From a virus, in the IMG/VR virus record IMGVR_UViG_3300023174_007844, positions 1 to 64,000 of that record: DNA of 64,000 nt. The stretch is one strand, 5' to 3'. Below, one piece after another: positions 52,292 to 63,077 of this stretch; within the stretch, counting starts at the first letter, position 1, and every line of letters begins with the position of its first letter. The position numbers and the translations under genes are program-made. The notes below the pieces were generated by a model. The model was given only the letters and a program-made list of their open reading frames with translations, was not told the origin of the DNA and did not search any database.

Positions 52292-53089
52292 ATGCATGAA
52301 TACTTAAATTTAGATTGTATTGAATATCTTAAAACACTTAAAGATAATTCCGTAGATCTCATTCTCACTGACCCTCCATACTTTATTGGATACGATGGAG
52401 GCAAAGGATGGGACACTCAATGGAATTCAGATCAAGAATATCTAGATTGGTGCGAAAAATGGACTAAAGAATGCGCTAGAATCTTAAAACCTAATAAAAT
52501 GATGTGTGTGTTTGGAACTTTAAAATACAATACATTCTTGCGCTATAGATTAGATATATTAGATAAACTACCAAACTTCTTTCAACAACCAGAAATTATA
52601 TGGTCTTACAATTGGGGAGGAAGAAGTAAAACAAATTTTGCTAGAAAACATGAGTATATTTGGTGCTACTCTAAAGAAAAAACTTTTACTTTTAATGCTG
52701 ACAATGTAAGAACTGAACGTAAACAAAAAGTAAACATTAGAACAGGTAAAGAATACGAACAAGGAACTATCCCAACCTGTGTATGGGAAAAGAACAATCA
52801 CACAACTAGCAAAGAATATTGTAATTGGCATCCCACTCAAAAACCAATTAGCATATTAGAAAGATTCGTTCAAGCATACACAAATCCAGGAGAAACAGTA
52901 TTAGATATATTTAATGGTGCTGGATCAACAATGATAGCATGTGAAAATACTGGACGAATCTTCAAAGGATGCGAAATAGATCCTGAATATTATGAAAAAT
53001 CAATTGCAAGATATACTACACTTACTGGAAAACAATATAACAATAACTTAATAAAAGTGCCAGGAAAGAAAACCAAAAATAAGGTATAA
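52292..53089 (+). CDS. Orphan N6A/N4C DNA methyltransferase (beta class)
   Basis: ILTDPPY (motif IV) precedes HPTQKP and LDIFNGAGST (motif I). Confidence 0.93.
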   Translation: MHEYLNLDCIEYLKTLKDNSVDLILTDPPYFIGYDGGKGWDTQWNSDQEYLDWCEKWTKECARILKPNKMMCVFGTLKYNTFLRYRLDILDKLPNFFQQPEIIWSYNWGGRSKTNFARKHEYIWCYSKEKTFTFNADNVRTERKQKVNIRTGKEYEQGTIPTCVWEKNNHTTSKEYCNWHPTQKPISILERFVQAYTNPGETVLDIFNGAGSTMIACENTGRIFKGCEIDPEYYEKSIARYTTLTGKQYNNNLIKVPGKKTKNKV

Positions 53090-53451: not shown

Positions 53452-53575
53452 AAATTATGAAAGAACAACGCAAACTAATAGAAAGAATTTTTGGAATGGT
53501 AGTAGTAATTGCAACAATGATTATTCTCAAAGTAGCTTGCGATTAGATTTTTCTTTGGTATAATAGTTTTGATGG

Positions 53576-53857
53576 TGGCCAGTAGCACAATGGCAGTGCA
53601 TTTGACTGTGGATTGATAGCAGCTTATTAGAGTAATTTAATATAGAAAATTGTCGAAATTCAGTGAAAGCTAAGTCGAAAGATATGCCAACACTGAGCCA
53701 AGCCCGTAAGGGAAGGTGCAGAGACTATAATGACAACATCCTACTAGGTATTGCTAAGGATGATGGTATAGTCCAGACTACAAACAGATTTATCTGGTAG
53801 TGAAAACTATAGTAGTAAGTAATCAAAGGGTTGATAGTTCGAGTCTATCCTGGCCAG
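53576..53857 (+). tRNA. trnN: tRNA-Asn(GTT) interrupted by a group I intron
   Basis: Exon 1 53576-53609 and exon 2 53820-53857 splice to give acceptor TGGCCAG/CTGGCCA, anticodon arm TTTGA-CTGTTAA-TCAAA and T-loop TTCGAGT; TGGTATAAT promoter upstream; no CCA. Confidence 0.92.
53610..53819 (+). ncRNA. Group I self-splicing intron (210 nt, no ORF)
   Basis: 5' splice site after U with P1 CTGT/GCAG (U.G); P3 TTGTCG/TGACAA; P4 TTCAGTG/CACTGAG; P7 GACTA/TAGTC within R (GCAGAGACTA) and S (GGTATAGTCC); ends in omega-G. Confidence 0.92.
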
Positions 53858-53858
53858 T

Positions 53859-53892
53859 AAATAATCCTCATATTTATTTATGGGGATTATTT
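53859..53892 (+). terminator. Terminator-like hairpin after tRNA-Asn
   Basis: AAATAATCCTCATA...TATGGGGATTATTT. Confidence 0.65.
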
Positions 53893-53898
53893 GTTTTA

Positions 53899-53945: not shown

Positions 53946-54731
53946 ATGAATACTACCAAAGGAAATTTAGATATGAAAAAATGCAAAAAATGTGAAAATC
54001 AAATACCCACTAGGATATATTTAGAAGATAAACTGATTTTAACTAAAAATCGCTTATATTGCTTTGACTGTTCGCCTTTCAAACAACATAATTTAAAGCA
54101 AACACAAACAACTTCAGACAAACCTATAATGAATACTTGTCGTGTATGTCAAAAAGATTATCCTGCAGGGCATCATCAACATAAGAGTATTTGCAATACT
54201 TGTCGTACTACTAGTTCAAGACAAAATAAAAAAAGAAGAGCCGTTGAATATATGGGAGGCAAATGTATAGTTTGTAATTATGACAAATGTATTGCTGCAT
54301 TGCATTTTCATCATATAGAACCTCACGAAAAAGAATTTGGTTTTTCAAGCAATATGACCAAGCCATTTGAAGTTTTGCAAATTGAACTTAATAAATGCAT
54401 TATAGTTTGTTCAAATTGCCATTCAGAGATACACGCTGGCTTATTTGAGATAGATGAATATGTTGTTCTACAAAATGAAATCAGGCAAACTTACATTCCA
54501 GAAACAAAGCCAGTAGTAAATTATGCACCTGTTGTAAAGATTTCTAAAAGACCTGATAAAGAAACTTTAGAAAAACTTGTTTGGGAAATGTCTTGTGTCA
54601 AAATAGGCGAAATGTATGGCGTTAGTGATAATGCTGTAAATAAATGGTGTAAATTTTATGGTATCAAAAAACCTGGAAGAGGTGATTGGGAAAAAATAAA
54701 ATTTGGAAAGCTTGAAATACCAAAACATTAG
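53946..54731 (+). CDS. Free-standing HNH homing endonuclease with Zn ribbons and C-terminal HTH
   Basis: CxxC pairs; GGKCIVC...ALHFHH...ELNKCIIVCSNCHSEIH; IGEMYGVSDNAVNKWCK. Confidence 0.88.
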   Translation: MNTTKGNLDMKKCKKCENQIPTRIYLEDKLILTKNRLYCFDCSPFKQHNLKQTQTTSDKPIMNTCRVCQKDYPAGHHQHKSICNTCRTTSSRQNKKRRAVEYMGGKCIVCNYDKCIAALHFHHIEPHEKEFGFSSNMTKPFEVLQIELNKCIIVCSNCHSEIHAGLFEIDEYVVLQNEIRQTYIPETKPVVNYAPVVKISKRPDKETLEKLVWEMSCVKIGEMYGVSDNAVNKWCKFYGIKKPGRGDWEKIKFGKLEIPKH

Positions 54732-54748
54732 GGTATAATCCTTGTGAT

Positions 54749-54821
54749 GGCCTGTTAGTCGAGTGGTTAAGATGCCTCCCTTTCACGGAGGAGACCAGGG
54801 GTTCGATACCCCTACAGGCTA
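54749..54821 (+). tRNA. trnE: tRNA-Glu(TTC)
   Basis: GGCCTGT/ACAGGCT acceptor; CCTCC-CTTTCAC-GGAGG; TTCGA loop; no CCA. Confidence 0.93.
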
Positions 54822-54845
54822 TTTGTGGTATAATGTATTTGTTGT

Positions 54846-54916
54846 TCTCTGGTGGTGTAACGGTAGCACAGAGGTTTTTGGTGCCTTTAGTTGGAGTTCG
54901 AATCTCTACCGGAGAA
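54846..54916 (+). tRNA. trnQ: tRNA-Gln(TTG)
   Basis: TCTCTGG/CCGGAGA acceptor; GAGGT-TTTTGGT-GCCTT; TTCGAAT loop. Confidence 0.88.
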
Positions 54917-54921
54917 CCTTT

Positions 54922-54992
54922 GCTCCATTAGTATAAAGATAGTACGGATCTCTTGTAAAGATTGGGTAGGCGTTTGATTCGTCTATGGAGCT
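54922..54992 (+). tRNA. trnT: tRNA-Thr(TGT), non-canonical D/T loops
   Basis: GCTCCAT/ATGGAGC acceptor; GATCT-CTTGTAA-AGATT; T-arm AGGCG-TTTGATT-CGTCT. Confidence 0.8.
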
Positions 54993-55022
54993 CCTTTCCC
55001 TTTTTTGTGATATAATAAAGTT

Positions 55023-55335: not shown

Positions 55336-55965
55336 ATGAAACTTAGTGATGTATTAGAAGAAGAATTTTTCTCTAGATCAAATTTAATTAATTATTTGAT
55401 TGGATTATATGGTTATAAGTCATATTTAGAGATTGGTGTCAATGATGGAATGAATTTTGAAAGGGTCAATTGTCCATATAAAGTTGGAGTAGATCCAGAA
55501 GACAGATATGACAAAATCACTTTCAATGTTACTTCAGATGAGTTTTTTGATCAGAATAAAGAAACATTTGATATTGTTTTTATTGATGGTTTGCATGTAT
55601 CAGGTCAAGTTATTAAGGATATCCGTAACAGCTTAGATATCTTGAATCCTAAAGGTACAATTGTGATGCATGATTGTCTTCCTGTAGCTGAGATAGTTCA
55701 AAGAGCAGAAAGAGAATCTCATCATTGGAATGGTGATGTTTGGAAAGCTTTTGCTCATTATAGGTCTGATCCAAATCTTACTATGTTTACGATTAGAACT
55801 GATCAAGGTTTAGGTGTCATAAAAAAGGGCAAACAAGAACCATTTGACTTGCCTGAAACTTTAGATTTTGAATTTTATTCTAAAAACGTTATTAATCTGA
55901 TGTCTGTTTTTGAAATTAGAGCTTCTCTTGATTTGATTGCTCAATTACATAAAAACAATTTTTAG
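55336..55965 (+). CDS. Class I SAM-dependent methyltransferase (Methyltransf_24-like)
   Basis: SYLEIGV, VGVDP, TSDEFF, FIDGLH, VMHDC, WNGDVWK. Confidence 0.85.
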   Translation: MKLSDVLEEEFFSRSNLINYLIGLYGYKSYLEIGVNDGMNFERVNCPYKVGVDPEDRYDKITFNVTSDEFFDQNKETFDIVFIDGLHVSGQVIKDIRNSLDILNPKGTIVMHDCLPVAEIVQRAERESHHWNGDVWKAFAHYRSDPNLTMFTIRTDQGLGVIKKGKQEPFDLPETLDFEFYSKNVINLMSVFEIRASLDLIAQLHKNNF

Positions 55966-57000: not shown

Positions 57001-57028
57001 AAAAGGGGAGAATTTTCTCCCCTTTTTT
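56999..57028. terminator. Bidirectional terminator
   Basis: AAAAAGGGGAGAA-t-TTTCTCCCCTTTTT. Confidence 0.85.
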
Positions 57029-57974
57029 ATTGGTTTCTGTAGTAGTCTAAAAGTAATTTGACACTATCTTCCAAGGTGTACTTAGGTGTCCAATTTGTCT
57101 TTTCATAAAACTTGTCAACACTAGGAATTTGAAGAGTTACATCTACAGGCCTAAGTAAGTTTGGATCTTCTTTTGAAACAATTTTACAATTTGCTTGTTT
57201 CTTAAGTTCTTCAAGAAAATCCCCTACTCTTACAGGGACAGTTGAACCAATATTGTATGCTTCTCCAATTTCGCATTCTTTAGCAGCAATCCAATAAGCT
57301 TCAACAATATCTCTTACATCAAGCAAAGTTCTTACAGAGTCTAAGTTTCCATGATAGAGAACATCTTGTTTTCCACGTTCAATATCTACAATTTGTTTTG
57401 CAAATGCGCTGGAAAAAATATCTGGCCTTCTTGGATTTATATAGCCAAAAGCACGAGTAATTACACAAGGTATTTCATAAGATCTATAATATGACTTTAC
57501 TAATTTTTCTTGTGTTAATTTACTAATAGCATAAACATTTACTGGATCTATACTTTGAGATTCTTTGATTGGTACTTCATCTGGTCTTACTTGCCCATAC
57601 ACTTCAGAAGTACCACAAAATTGAATCATTGGTTTTTGATTTAAGATTCTTAATGCTTCTAATAAATTTAAGGTTCCATTTACATTATTATTGAAAACAG
57701 AGCTTGGCGTAGTAAATGATAATTTTACATTTGCATTGGAAGCCAAGTGGAAAATGTAATCAGGTTTTGCTTCTTCGAGAGTTCTAATTAAGCTTCCAAG
57801 ATCCGTCAAGTCACATTCAAACATTTTTATCTTAGAAAAAACTCCCGATTTGTTTTTTCTATCAGTATGCCATCTCGAAATACCTTGAATTTGAATATCA
57901 GGTATTGTCGAAAGGTGTTCAGCTAAGTAAGTAGCTCCACTTCCATTGATTCCTGTAATGAGTGCGTTTTTCAT
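57027..57974 (-). CDS. GDP-mannose 4,6-dehydratase / RMD-like NAD-dependent sugar enzyme
   Basis: ALITGING, PDYIFHLAS, TSEVYG, YAISK, GNLDSVR, LRPVDV. Confidence 0.9.
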   Translation of the reverse strand: MKNALITGINGSGATYLAEHLSTIPDIQIQGISRWHTDRKNKSGVFSKIKMFECDLTDLGSLIRTLEEAKPDYIFHLASNANVKLSFTTPSSVFNNNVNGTLNLLEALRILNQKPMIQFCGTSEVYGQVRPDEVPIKESQSIDPVNVYAISKLTQEKLVKSYYRSYEIPCVITRAFGYINPRRPDIFSSAFAKQIVDIERGKQDVLYHGNLDSVRTLLDVRDIVEAYWIAAKECEIGEAYNIGSTVPVRVGDFLEELKKQANCKIVSKEDPNLLRPVDVTLQIPSVDKFYEKTNWTPKYTLEDSVKLLLDYYRNQ

Positions 57975-57997
57975 AAAGGTATTATACATTCCAAATT

Positions 57998-58652: not shown

Positions 58653-58725
58653 GCAACCGTAGCTCAGTGGATAGAGCAAATGCCTTCTAAGCATTTGGCC
58701 ACAGGTTCGAGTCCTGTCGGTTGTA
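58653..58725 (+). tRNA. trnR: tRNA-Arg(TCT)
   Basis: GCAACCG/CGGTTGT; AATGC-CTTCTAA-GCATT; ACAGG-TTCGAGT-CCTGT; TGTGGTATAAT promoter. Confidence 0.95.
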
Positions 58726-59176: not shown

Positions 59177-60193
59177 TTAGAATGAAATGTGTTTATATCC
59201 AGATTGTTCTAGGAATCTTAGAAATTCTCTTCCGTCAAATCCTCTTTGTTGTCCTTCCCAAATGGTTTTTTCTATTAGTTTTTCTCGCCATTTTTTATAA
59301 TTAGGGCAATTCCAATCAAACCAATTATTTTCTAGTAATTTGAGATTAAGAACAGTTTGATTTACATTTGTTGAATAAGGAAATTTCCAAAACTTAAATT
59401 CAGGGTTGTATTTTTCTTTTGTAGTATCAAAATATAATTGATTTCCAAGACAAGCCTGAGAAGCATCCAATAGATCGAATAAATCTTTATCTGCCCAAAT
59501 AATCATCCATAGTGCTTCATAACACCACCCAGAATATCCATTAGATTTATTAGGATCTTTTTCAATTAATTTCTTGAATTTTTCCTCTCTTGACAATCCT
59601 CTTAAGTAGGGGTGATACATGTCTATATCTTGAAATAAATAATCTGGTTTTTCAGCTTCTTCTAATAATTGAAATATCTTTTCATCTGTATTCCAATAAA
59701 TTAAGTTTTCATAAAAAGAAATTGGTTTTTCTTGAATTTTTTCTCTAGATACATAAAAAATTTCACCAGGACCAAAACAATAAAGGTATTTACTAATATT
59801 ATTGTCATTAATAAAACCTAGTCCTAATTTGTGAGCTATTTCTCGAATGGGATTTAATCTAACCCAACTAGATGAAAATTGATTATAAATTGGTCGTGCA
59901 TAACAAAAGGAACCATATCCAGCTGTTAGTGTGCTTTCGATAGCTAATAATGGTTCATGAACATGATCATCTGGAATAGCTTGAGAATAAATAACAAAAT
60001 CTGGCAAGTTGTTATAATTTTCAATAATCCATTTTATAAATATTGTTTGATTACTTGTATTCTTGTCTACACAAATATCATCTGGTTCTGGATTATTTCC
60101 AACATGAAAAACTGTTTTAGGGTATTTTAATTTATTGATGAAAATATCTCTATCTTCATTATTATGAATAATTATAAAGTGTTTATTTTGCAT
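59177..60193 (-). CDS. DUF3431-like protein
   Basis: WIIENYNNLPDFVIYSQ..P.DH, G.IFYVSRE.I..KP..FYE, YEALW. Confidence 0.65.
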   Translation of the reverse strand: MQNKHFIIIHNNEDRDIFINKLKYPKTVFHVGNNPEPDDICVDKNTSNQTIFIKWIIENYNNLPDFVIYSQAIPDDHVHEPLLAIESTLTAGYGSFCYARPIYNQFSSSWVRLNPIREIAHKLGLGFINDNNISKYLYCFGPGEIFYVSREKIQEKPISFYENLIYWNTDEKIFQLLEEAEKPDYLFQDIDMYHPYLRGLSREEKFKKLIEKDPNKSNGYSGWCYEALWMIIWADKDLFDLLDASQACLGNQLYFDTTKEKYNPEFKFWKFPYSTNVNQTVLNLKLLENNWFDWNCPNYKKWREKLIEKTIWEGQQRGFDGREFLRFLEQSGYKHISF

Positions 60194-61359: not shown

Positions 61360-61950
61360 ATGGATACTTTTTTTTGTGAATTGGGCAGTGATAAGTATAT
61401 AAGAGAAAATTTTTTTTCTGACTATCAATACAAAGGGACAATGGTTGAAGTTGGAGGGGGACATCCAGAATTATATTCAACATCAAAACATTGGATAGAC
61501 AATGGCTGGAGAGCGATCATTTTTGAACCACAACCTAAATTTTTTGAAATGCATAAAAATTTAAACAATGAAGTATATGATGTTGCAATTTCAAATGCTT
61601 GTGGTGAAGATATAGACTTTCATATTTGTAAAGATTCGATGGGTATGTCAGCTTCAGCTTTAGCACATAGAATTGGACAATACAATTTAGATCAAATAAT
61701 TAAAACTAACACTATAACTTTGGACAAAGCTTTAGATGTTATTGATGTAAATAAAATTGATATTGTAAATATAGATGTTGAAGGCTGGGAATTGGAAGTT
61801 ATGCAGGGTTTTAGCCCAGAAAAATATAATTTTCCTCTTATTGTACTTGAAAACTTTACTAGAAGTTCTTCATATATAGAGTATATGGAAAAAATTGGTT
61901 ATAAATTAATTTGGAATCTTGAATATAATTATTTATTCCAACATGAATAA
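61360..61950 (+). CDS. FkbM-family methyltransferase
   Basis: VEVGG, GWRAIIFEP, VAISN, TITLD, IDVEGWELEVMQG. Confidence 0.88.
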   Translation: MDTFFCELGSDKYIRENFFSDYQYKGTMVEVGGGHPELYSTSKHWIDNGWRAIIFEPQPKFFEMHKNLNNEVYDVAISNACGEDIDFHICKDSMGMSASALAHRIGQYNLDQIIKTNTITLDKALDVIDVNKIDIVNIDVEGWELEVMQGFSPEKYNFPLIVLENFTRSSSYIEYMEKIGYKLIWNLEYNYLFQHE

Positions 61951-61991: not shown

Positions 61992-63077
61992 ATGTGGTAT
62001 AAAATAGCCCAGCAATTGCAACTTCCTGGTTTAGATGTAGAGCAATCTTCACCAACAACAAGAGAAAAATCTAAGCCAAGAGAAGAATCACCAGAACTTT
62101 TAGAAACTCAAAAAAATCCTCAAAGTTTATTCTTTAGTGATTGGGCTAAAGGTCATTACGTGCCAGAAGAACCTGTCTATCACGGAACAACTCACGAATT
62201 TGATAGATTTGATATTGACAAAGGTTCAATGAGTAATTATTTTGGTCCAGCATTTTATTTTACTAGTGATGAAGAAGATGCTTCAAAAAATTACACTGGT
62301 ACTGGGCCTGATCAAGAAAGAAACATTGAAAATCTTCAATATAATTTGCTTGATCAATATGATGAAGACGAATATTATCTATGGAATTTATATAGTGATG
62401 ATCCAAGATATAGTAGAGAATTCAATGAAGACGGTAAACCATATAACCCAAGTTATCTAGCAGAAAAAATTGCCAGAGATACAATTTTAGGACCCAATAA
62501 ACCTAGAGTAATTCCTGCTCACGTTAGAATGAAAAACCCAATTCATCTAACTAGTTCACAGGATGCAGAACATCCAGAAAAAGTTTTCATTGATGATATA
62601 GAAGGTAGTATGGACTTTTTAGGGAAAAGAATCAATCCTTCTGACAACCATAATTTGAGCACAGTTATATCAAAACTTCACAATATTATAGTGGACTATT
62701 GGGATTATGATATTGCTAATGAAATTTGTGAAGAATTAGTGCAAGATAATTCTGTTGGATTTGATGAAGAAATTTCAGCCTCTTCATTGATCATGGACCT
62801 AATTAAAAAATTAGAATTTTATGATAGTGATCAAGATACTCAGTTTAAAGGTGATATTGTCAAAAGATTTATTAATTCACTAGGACATGACAGTATTGTC
62901 ATGGATCCTAATCAATTTTTCAGAATGTACTCTCAAAAGAAACCAATCAAACATTACATCACCTGGAATCCAGAAAACATTAAACACGCCAGAGAAAATA
63001 TAGAGTTTGATCCAAAAAATCCTGTTATCACTGCTAAGAGTGGTAAAATTAATTTATGGAAGAATTCTTTGCTGTAG
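61992..63077 (+). CDS. ADP-ribosyltransferase-like (ART-PolyVal-type) protein with MWY leader
   Basis: VYHGT...FDRFD...FGPAFYFTSD...VIPAHVRMKNP...GHDSIV...YITWNPENIK; N-terminal MWYKIAQ. Confidence 0.7.
   Translation: MWYKIAQQLQLPGLDVEQSSPTTREKSKPREESPELLETQKNPQSLFFSDWAKGHYVPEEPVYHGTTHEFDRFDIDKGSMSNYFGPAFYFTSDEEDASKNYTGTGPDQERNIENLQYNLLDQYDEDEYYLWNLYSDDPRYSREFNEDGKPYNPSYLAEKIARDTILGPNKPRVIPAHVRMKNPIHLTSSQDAEHPEKVFIDDIEGSMDFLGKRINPSDNHNLSTVISKLHNIIVDYWDYDIANEICEELVQDNSVGFDEEISASSLIMDLIKKLEFYDSDQDTQFKGDIVKRFINSLGHDSIVMDPNQFFRMYSQKKPIKHYITWNPENIKHARENIEFDPKNPVITAKSGKINLWKNSLL

Follow-up and report, generated by a model that had tools for sequence, protein, structure and literature searches.

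A compact group I intron, probably of recent mobility, within the anticodon of a tRNA-Asn gene in a freshwater jumbo-phage lineage

How can a phage tRNA gene that is interrupted inside its own anticodon still yield a tRNA, what kind of element interrupts it, and how did that element arrive there? These questions are raised by a locus in a 64,000-nucleotide stretch of viral DNA (hereafter the window), which is the first 64 kb of the 80.4-kb IMG/VR virus record IMGVR_UViG_3300023174_007844, a record with a CheckV completeness of 22%. Our answer is that the locus very probably holds a functional phage tRNA-Asn(GUU) gene with a compact, ORF-less group I intron between U35 and U36, which has been mobile recently within a lineage of freshwater jumbo phages. 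The phage DNA of the window has a G+C content of 32.6% and encodes a ribonucleotide reductase, a DNA polymerase, RecJ, DnaB and UvsX among its replication genes. A megablast search with 24 kb found no close relative among cultured phages; contigs of related phages reach 300-358 kb and the DNA runs that contain the window stretch are lake or freshwater metagenomes, and because of these two observations we assign the source to a freshwater jumbo phage.

The initial annotation of the window had read the locus as a phage tRNA-Asn(GTT) split at positions 35/36 by a group I intron, and this central reading is borne out. When introns are allowed, ARAGORN reports a tRNA-Asn(gtt) at 53576-53857 (plus strand, as are the other parts of the locus from the promoter-like site to the tRNA cluster) in which an intron of 210 nt is inserted behind base 34, equivalent to Sprinzl 35/36, and thereby reproduces every coordinate that had been proposed, the length of the insert included. 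Exon 1 (53576-53609) supplies the 5′ strand of the acceptor stem, the D arm, the 5′ strand of the anticodon stem and loop bases C32-U35, while exon 2 (53820-53857) runs from U36 to discriminator G73 and has no encoded CCA. Removal of 53610-53819 leaves a canonical 72-nt cloverleaf with a U1-A72 pair, G73 as discriminator and the anticodon loop CUGUUAA, so that the exons do rejoin as CT-GT^T-AA in the way that had been suggested. Among the eight anticodon-loop positions, moreover, 35/36 is the single one that offers both a U at -1 and a terminal intron G.

The gene is flanked by signals of its own. A promoter-like site, TTGCGA-16-TGgTATAAT (53537-53564), precedes the 5′ end of the tRNA by 12 nt, matches the consensus at 10 of 12 positions, which is a consensus match only, and has a TG before the -10 element, which is itself kept in the related contigs L035, L167, L160, L162 and L166. 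Downstream, a terminator-like hairpin of 15 bp (-16.9 kcal/mol; 53858-53893) that a simple signal scan does not list is followed by TTTT and is kept in L035 and L167. Further along stand the uninterrupted genes for tRNA-Glu(UUC), tRNA-Gln(UUG) and tRNA-Thr(UGU) (54748-54994), the rest of a syntenic tRNA cluster whose Glu/Gln/Thr order is maintained in relatives. The tRNA-Asn gene is both the sole Asn tRNA and the sole interrupted tRNA of the 80-kb record. Around the cluster we also note two DNA methyltransferases, a GDP-mannose-dehydratase-like epimerase, a weak, sub-threshold match to DUF3431 and a protein with an ADP-ribosyltransferase (ART-PolyVal) domain, this set of genes lying at 52292-53089, 55336-55965, 57027-57989, 59177-60193 and 61992-63077.

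The identity of the insert as a group I intron (53610-53819) is established by a covariance-model score, by covariation and by its clean presence or absence in relatives. The match to the Rfam covariance model RF00028 (Intron_gpI) runs end to end over 53600-53795 and scores 83.5 bits (E 7e-22), well above the gathering score of 50. It had been noticed at the outset that the insert has the U·G of P1, the strands of P3, P4 and P7 and a terminal G, and all of these are present, with P2 to P9 able to form in the sequence. P1 pairs the final CTGT of exon 1 (53606-53609; C32-U35 in the tRNA) with the internal guide sequence GCAG at intron bases 10-13 (53619-53622), in which G10 (53619) forms the wobble with U35, and the last intron base is G210, the omega-G, at 53819. 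P2 (53623-53645) is a hairpin of nine pairs, eight of them with compensatory changes, closed by a GUAA tetraloop whose GNRA character relatives retain. The P3 strands UUGUCG (53650-53655) and UGACAA (53731-53736) covary at six of six pairs, with 89% of alignment cells paired, and between them lies the P4-P5-P6 domain (53660-53717), consisting of P4 (53660-65 with 53691-96), P5 with a GAAA loop and P6 with a GUAA loop (53697-53717). P7, the guanosine-binding helix, pairs GACUA (53723-53727) with UAGUC (53769-53773), the latter inside the conserved J8/7-P7 motif AUAGUCC, and encloses the P8 hairpin (53737-53762), of which four pairs show compensatory changes. The 3′ end is taken up by P9 (53777-53816), which contains two inner hairpins, P9a (53785-96) and P9b (53798-53809, GAAA loop), an architecture common to the introns of phage tRNA-Arg, -Lys, -Thr and -Leu genes. 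The helices of the ribozyme occupy all 210 nt, and there is no endonuclease ORF within the intron, the sole overlapping frame being one of 45 aa with a GTG start.

We examined the fold in two alignments. The first comprises 25 tRNA-Asn introns, 7 from viral contigs and 18 bacterial, in which P1 including its guide sequence, the terminal G and all five P7 pairs do not vary, and compensatory changes are seen at 25 of the 38 pairs predicted. The second comprises 17 compact phage tRNA introns on which the structure of the window intron was imposed, including the P3/P7 pseudoknot: here the share of paired cells is 88.9%, while shuffles give 70.5% and sliding the partners by one to three columns gives 30-40%. 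Of the 56 pairs, 42 carry two-sided compensatory changes, a number that none of 500 shuffles reached. Within this second alignment P4 and P6 are 100% paired, the P9 helices are 97-100% paired with covariation in 12 of 13 pairs, and four of the five P7 pairs are invariant. Covariation thus supports P2 to P9 with the P3/P7 pseudoknot, P7 itself being nearly invariant. A separate, weak RF00028 match at 61468-61638 (15.9 bits, E 0.005), which lies amid overlapping ORFs and falls below threshold, is probably a chance hit rather than a second intron.

The guide sequence itself covaries with the anticodon loop of the host tRNA across Asn, Lys, Thr and Arg introns. The end of the 5′ exon and its guide read CUGU:GCAG in Asn, CUCU:GGAG in Lys(CUU), CUUU:GAAG in Lys(UUU), CUU:GAG in Thr and CCU:GGG in Arg(CCU), a pattern that shows the window intron to be one member of a phage intron family whose guide has been retuned to several tRNA anticodon loops. 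Among the 34 viral loci of a single pattern scan are tRNA genes for Asn, Thr, Lys, Arg and Leu that carry an interruption. At L016:3526-5058, in a 281-kb viral contig, three tRNA genes within 1.5 kb each carry a group-I-like intron of about 190-240 nt, and L030 is alike; of the L016 hosts, which ARAGORN names Arg(UCU), Leu(UAA) and Glu, the U-1/omega-G rule maps the last as Lys(UUU).

One further pairing had been proposed, a P10 helix between intron GATTG and TAATC of the 3′ exon. GAUUG (intron bases 2-6) is indeed able to pair with UAAUC in the window, but the pairing is not conserved in near-identical relatives: in five such copies intron bases 1-6 read GGATTG, AAATTG, AAATAG or GAAAAG, the 3′ exon opens on either TAATC or TAACC, and the changes in one are uncompensated in the other. 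In view of this uncompensated variation, P10 is ruled out as a conserved element and we do not count it among the supported helices. The exons are most likely held together by the anticodon stem of the tRNA instead, an arrangement established in Anabaena, in the intron of pre-tRNA-Leu (Zaug et al. 1993, as cited in PMC3984707), and by this analogy the stem probably aligns the exons of the window gene as well.

The splicing pathway would then be a conventional one. The pre-tRNA would be transcribed as its own unit between the promoter-like site and the terminator hairpin, C32-U35 would pair with the guide GCAG to form P1 with its U35·G wobble, and free guanosine bound in P7 would attack after U35; the terminal G (53819) would then take over the guanosine site and the exons would be ligated to give the loop CUGUUAA, the ligated RNA reading GACUGU up to the junction and UAAUCAAA beyond it. 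From these features we infer that the window intron splices. That such splicing might control the supply of this tRNA, as the initial annotation also supposed, is speculative. RNA from the environment adds to the picture in that three lake metatranscriptome runs each yielded one contig, of 198-260 nt and 95-99% identity, spanning 53615-53854. These contigs cover the intron and adjoining exon, without neighbouring genes, in contig-only runs for which uncovered flanks are uninformative, and one of them extends upstream into the first exon of a different tRNA-Asn body (the B type described below) and so represents the unspliced precursor of a relative. No ligated exon junction was seen in these contigs, which by their nature cannot show RNA ends and come from libraries of a kind that may contain DNA; a fourth run (X15) is probably DNA. 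The three contigs would fit a stable and plentiful RNA of the intron or of its precursor.

Precise splicing predicts a junction, and it is here that related phages are most informative. The predicted ligated sequence, with GACTGT before the junction and TAATCAAA after it, is the uninterrupted gene of related phage contigs: a scan of IMG/VR for the ligated form recovered uninterrupted tRNA-Asn genes with exactly GACTGT followed by TAATCAAAGGGTTGAT, so that the junction which had been put forward as a check on the reading occurs to the base in nature. In an alignment of the related loci the intron is a clean 210-nt presence or absence with the boundaries otherwise unchanged. Five contigs carry it (the window, L035, L169, L170 and L171), with introns that are 94-98% mutually identical, and the host exons are of two types that share just 52-58% identity, an A type starting TGGCCAG (the window, L035) and a B type starting TCCAACT or TCCTTAA (L169-L171). 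Each type has intron-less counterparts, the exons of L162 and L166 being 100% identical to those of L035 (A), and the exons of L172, L174 and L175 being 100% identical to those of L170 (B). The sole sequence that A and B alleles have in common around the insertion site is CTGTTAA, and we saw no co-conversion of exons. Since the intron is more conserved than either the exons or the collinear DNA around it (82-91% identical), and since it is found in two unrelated alleles and precisely absent from matching ones, the comparison indicates recent, site-specific and precise movement between tRNA-Asn alleles. P1 differs between the two, comprising six pairs (GGCUGU:GCAGCU) in the B type and four contiguous pairs in the A type of the window, where A31 faces C, and the longer P1 gives a hint that the B type is the older host.

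A contrasting reading of the locus, that the intron is a decayed relic, the gene a pseudogene or splicing dependent on a protein cofactor, would account for the short P1 of the window allele and for the fact that no spliced RNA was observed. However, all core helices and invariant nucleotides are intact, the intron remains 95-98% identical in five contigs while the collinear flanks are 82-91% identical, the exons are undamaged and match intron-less alleles exactly, and the gene is the only tRNA-Asn of the 80-kb record, and we consider such decay or dependence very improbable. A side observation concerns another tRNA gene. The uninterrupted tRNA-Arg(UCU) of the window (58653-58725) is the intron-less allele of a gene at L035:6305-6551 (minus strand), in which a 231-nt group-I-like intron sits at 34/35 between exons nearly identical to those of the window; by sequence, intron occupancy of tRNA genes varies within this phage lineage.

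What moves an intron without an ORF? A candidate lies immediately beside it, in the form of a free-standing gene for an HNH endonuclease of 261 aa (53946-54731) that starts 89 nt downstream of the tRNA-Asn gene. Its identity comes from PHROGs (phrog_2255, E 2e-33), with no Pfam match, and the protein consists of N-terminal zinc ribbons, an HNH core and a C-terminal helix-turn-helix-like domain. An alignment of 18 homologs has invariant catalytic and zinc-binding residues (CxxC...FHH...CxNCHxE) and a strikingly conserved helix-turn-helix-like C-terminus. The core is 35-51% identical to ORFs inside bacterial tRNA-Asn introns of about 550 nt (pairwise E 6e-29), one of which passes the Pfam HNH model, and among the bacterial loci examined an HNH-related hit is present in 21 of the 51 Asn loci and in 1 of the other 69. 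One HNH family is therefore found beside an ORF-less phage tRNA-Asn intron and inside bacterial tRNA-Asn introns at the same 35/36 site.

These facts suggest that the phage HNH gene may assist movement of the intron by collaborative homing, in which the HNH protein would cut intron-less tRNA-Asn genes near the anticodon loop, repair would copy the intron, often together with the HNH gene, and the intron or a changed anticodon stem would protect the genome that carries it. A close ortholog (at least 79% identity) directly follows tRNA-Asn in four of the five intron-bearing contigs, being kept in L035, L169 and L170, and in one of ten intron-less contigs (L167, 76% identical), an association with a Fisher p of 0.017 in which the relatedness of the contigs is uncorrected. 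In that lone intron-less carrier the anticodon stem is altered at two base pairs, which, together with the intron carriers, fits homing with immunity and is no proof of it. There is precedent in two phages whose free-standing endonucleases target the insertion site of an ORF-less intron (PMC3984707). Against this, L171 has the intron and no HNH gene between its Asn and Glu tRNAs, and more distant paralogs stand beside intron-less tRNA-Asn genes with an anticodon arm of the window type (L160, L162 and L166). The family as a whole adjoins many different phage tRNAs, and because of this it may have another target altogether, as SegB does in T4. Its relatives (motif KC[IVL][LIM][VL]C[SAG]NC) are encoded in 554 of 598 candidate stretches of viral contigs, and nearly all of the 80 HNH loci examined (L169-L248) have tRNA genes within 2.5 kb. 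In L170 two paralogs flank one tRNA, as is sometimes the case in this family. A strict linkage of intron and HNH gene is ruled out by the paralogs that flank intron-less tRNA-Asn and many other tRNA genes. Furthermore, alleles that share CTGTTAA alone, with no exon co-conversion, are unusual for homing by double-strand-break repair, and on balance we regard collaborative homing as a tentative proposal.

The same lack of co-conversion is equally predicted by transposition at the RNA level, in which the excised intron would reverse-splice into tRNA-Asn at CUGU and then be reverse transcribed and recombined into the genome. The occurrence of one intron in two tRNA-Asn bodies that have no exon sequence in common beyond the loop, and of a wider intron family in which the guide matches each host loop, are what insertion specified by P1 would predict (the pathway is set out in PMC3984707). 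Yet no reverse transcriptase was seen among the scanned window proteins, the pathway is described in that review as lacking direct experimental support, and a 4-nt target would allow many off-target sites, so that we think this route an unlikely one. Whichever operates, the same intron in two unrelated tRNA-Asn bodies, each with exact intron-less alleles, provides unusually clean population data, and makes the spread of an ORF-less intron, by nuclease-assisted homing or by reverse splicing, a question that can be taken to the bench with defined substrates. As a tentative extension, the phage lineage could be a natural intermediate on the proposed way from a free-standing nuclease and an ORF-less intron to a mobile intron with its own nuclease; if this is true, the phage nuclease drives the intron, or immunity to the nuclease selects for its spread, from one tRNA-Asn allele to an unrelated one with nothing but the anticodon loop in common.

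The initial annotation had further mentioned 35/36 introns in tRNA-Asn genes of Patescibacteria and had supposed that phages may shuttle them. The first statement is sound. The Williams 2020 preprint (bioRxiv 10.1101/2020.01.27.920355) extends the four classical settings of bacterial tRNA introns to 21 and its seed alignment contains Pam37.Asn.4Ug, and when we scanned bacteria with each species represented by one genome, 120 loci matched, of which at least 51 were tRNA-Asn genes with a 35/36 intron, many with record titles that name Patescibacteria, the lineages including WWE3, Saccharibacteria, Uhrbacteria, Moranbacteria, Doudnabacteria, Pacebacteria and Kaiserbacteria. By its position, the window intron can be placed in this published class, Asn.4Ug. 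The supposed shuttling holds in part: the two alleles and their intron-less matches argue for movement among phages, but a shuttle between phages and Patescibacteria is not shown, because a tree branch with an SH-aLRT of 96 sets all 27 sampled bacterial and 4 viral-contig Asn introns apart from the clade of the window, on whose side are phage introns of tRNA-Lys, -Thr, -Arg and -Leu. The tree was built on a MAFFT alignment of a structured RNA and is of moderate strength; at that strength, it recovers no common descent with the bacterial Asn.4Ug members and does not support direct descent from the Patescibacteria introns. Outside its own clade the best matches of the window intron are phage introns, and short blastn matches fall in introns of crAss-like and Pelagibacter phage protein genes and in a tRNA-Arg gene annotated in a Microcoleus phage. 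Over a stretch of about 60 nt, the 3′ part of the window intron shows 80-85% identity to introns that split the DnaB helicase gene in two crAss-like phages (L001:336-2629 and L004:749-2582) and that carry GIY-YIG endonuclease genes. The Microcoleus phage is My-WqHQDG, whose GenBank record (OR578706.1) annotates a 286-nt ‘tRNA-Arg’ (L002:1311-1596), in our analysis a tRNA-Arg(CCU) interrupted at 36/37 by a group-I-like intron of 213 nt, the P9 region of which resembles that of the window intron.

Genes of this kind are easily overlooked. It had been anticipated that standard tRNA scanners would miss the interrupted gene, and with default settings both ARAGORN and the Rfam tRNA model do so, each reporting only the four uninterrupted tRNAs of the window. 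The intron fares no better, as an Rfam run at gathering thresholds over the whole window passed over it and the 83.5-bit match emerged when 500 bases were given; the miss is not evidence of absence, because speed filters had dropped the intron, and routine annotation of AT-rich phage DNA may lose such introns through the same Rfam defaults. Since default tRNA finders and default Rfam both miss interrupted genes, phage tRNA repertoires are undercounted, which touches the inferences on codon usage and recoding that are built on them. Together with the dozens of phage contigs recovered alongside it, the locus shows that introns are common in the tRNA genes of large phages. A review of 2014 still placed every phage group I intron known at the time in a protein-coding gene, numerous as phage tRNA genes are (Hausner et al. 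2014; PMC3984707). Our literature search turned up no paper that describes group I introns in the tRNA genes of phages, and what it gave on introns of tRNA-Asn and of Patescibacteria was confined to organelle or unrelated papers. The element is an ordinary ribozyme in kind, and it is the phage-tRNA host context that has no description in the searchable literature.

How, then, does the window locus compare with systems that have been described? A phage parallel is found in the Lak megaphages, for which Devoto et al. 2018 (10.1101/356790) stated that there was no earlier report of introns in phage tRNAs and called those of Lak ‘enigmatic’; the hosts are again very large phages and the introns are present in some variants and absent from others, but the terms ‘group I’ and ‘self-splicing’ are absent from that paper, whereas the window intron is a textbook ribozyme. 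The collaborative homing pairs reviewed in PMC3984707 are similar to the window in combining an ORF-less intron with a free-standing endonuclease gene nearby, and differ from it in that the host gene here is a tRNA and the HNH family also flanks intron-less tRNAs. The two phage precedents are presumably the psbA intron of cyanophage S-PM2 with F-CphI and the nrdB intron of T4 with mobE. SegB of T4 is a member of the GIY-YIG family, and the window protein is an HNH. Like the window gene, that of SegB (cited in PMC3984707 and the subject of PMC13096335) encodes a free-standing nuclease embedded in a phage tRNA array, and it probably drives preferential inheritance of the tRNA region; the T4 system has no intron, while in the window one lies beside the HNH gene.

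Among bacterial introns, the members of Asn.4Ug have the same host tRNA-Asn(GUU), the same insertion at 35/36 after the fourth loop base, U-1, a terminal G and the CUGU/GCAG P1. They differ in having, for the most part, extra hairpins between P7 and P3′ that the window intron does not possess, a single P9 hairpin in place of two, bacterial rather than phage hosts, and, where an HNH gene is present, its location inside the intron rather than beside the tRNA. In layout and motifs the window intron resembles the tRNA-intron seeds that Williams reports as IC3, so that it may belong to this subgroup. Its overall architecture is like that of bacterial tRNA introns (IC3-like). The classical bacterial representatives of IC3 are found in cyanobacterial and plastid tRNA-Leu(UAA), in tRNA-fMet, in Azoarcus tRNA-Ile and in Agrobacterium tRNA-Arg. 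With these the window intron has in common a compact anticodon-loop ribozyme some 200 nt in length, a P1 formed from loop bases, GNRA loops on P2, P5 and P9 and an anticodon stem that can hold the exons; what sets it apart is another tRNA, another position and a phage as its host.
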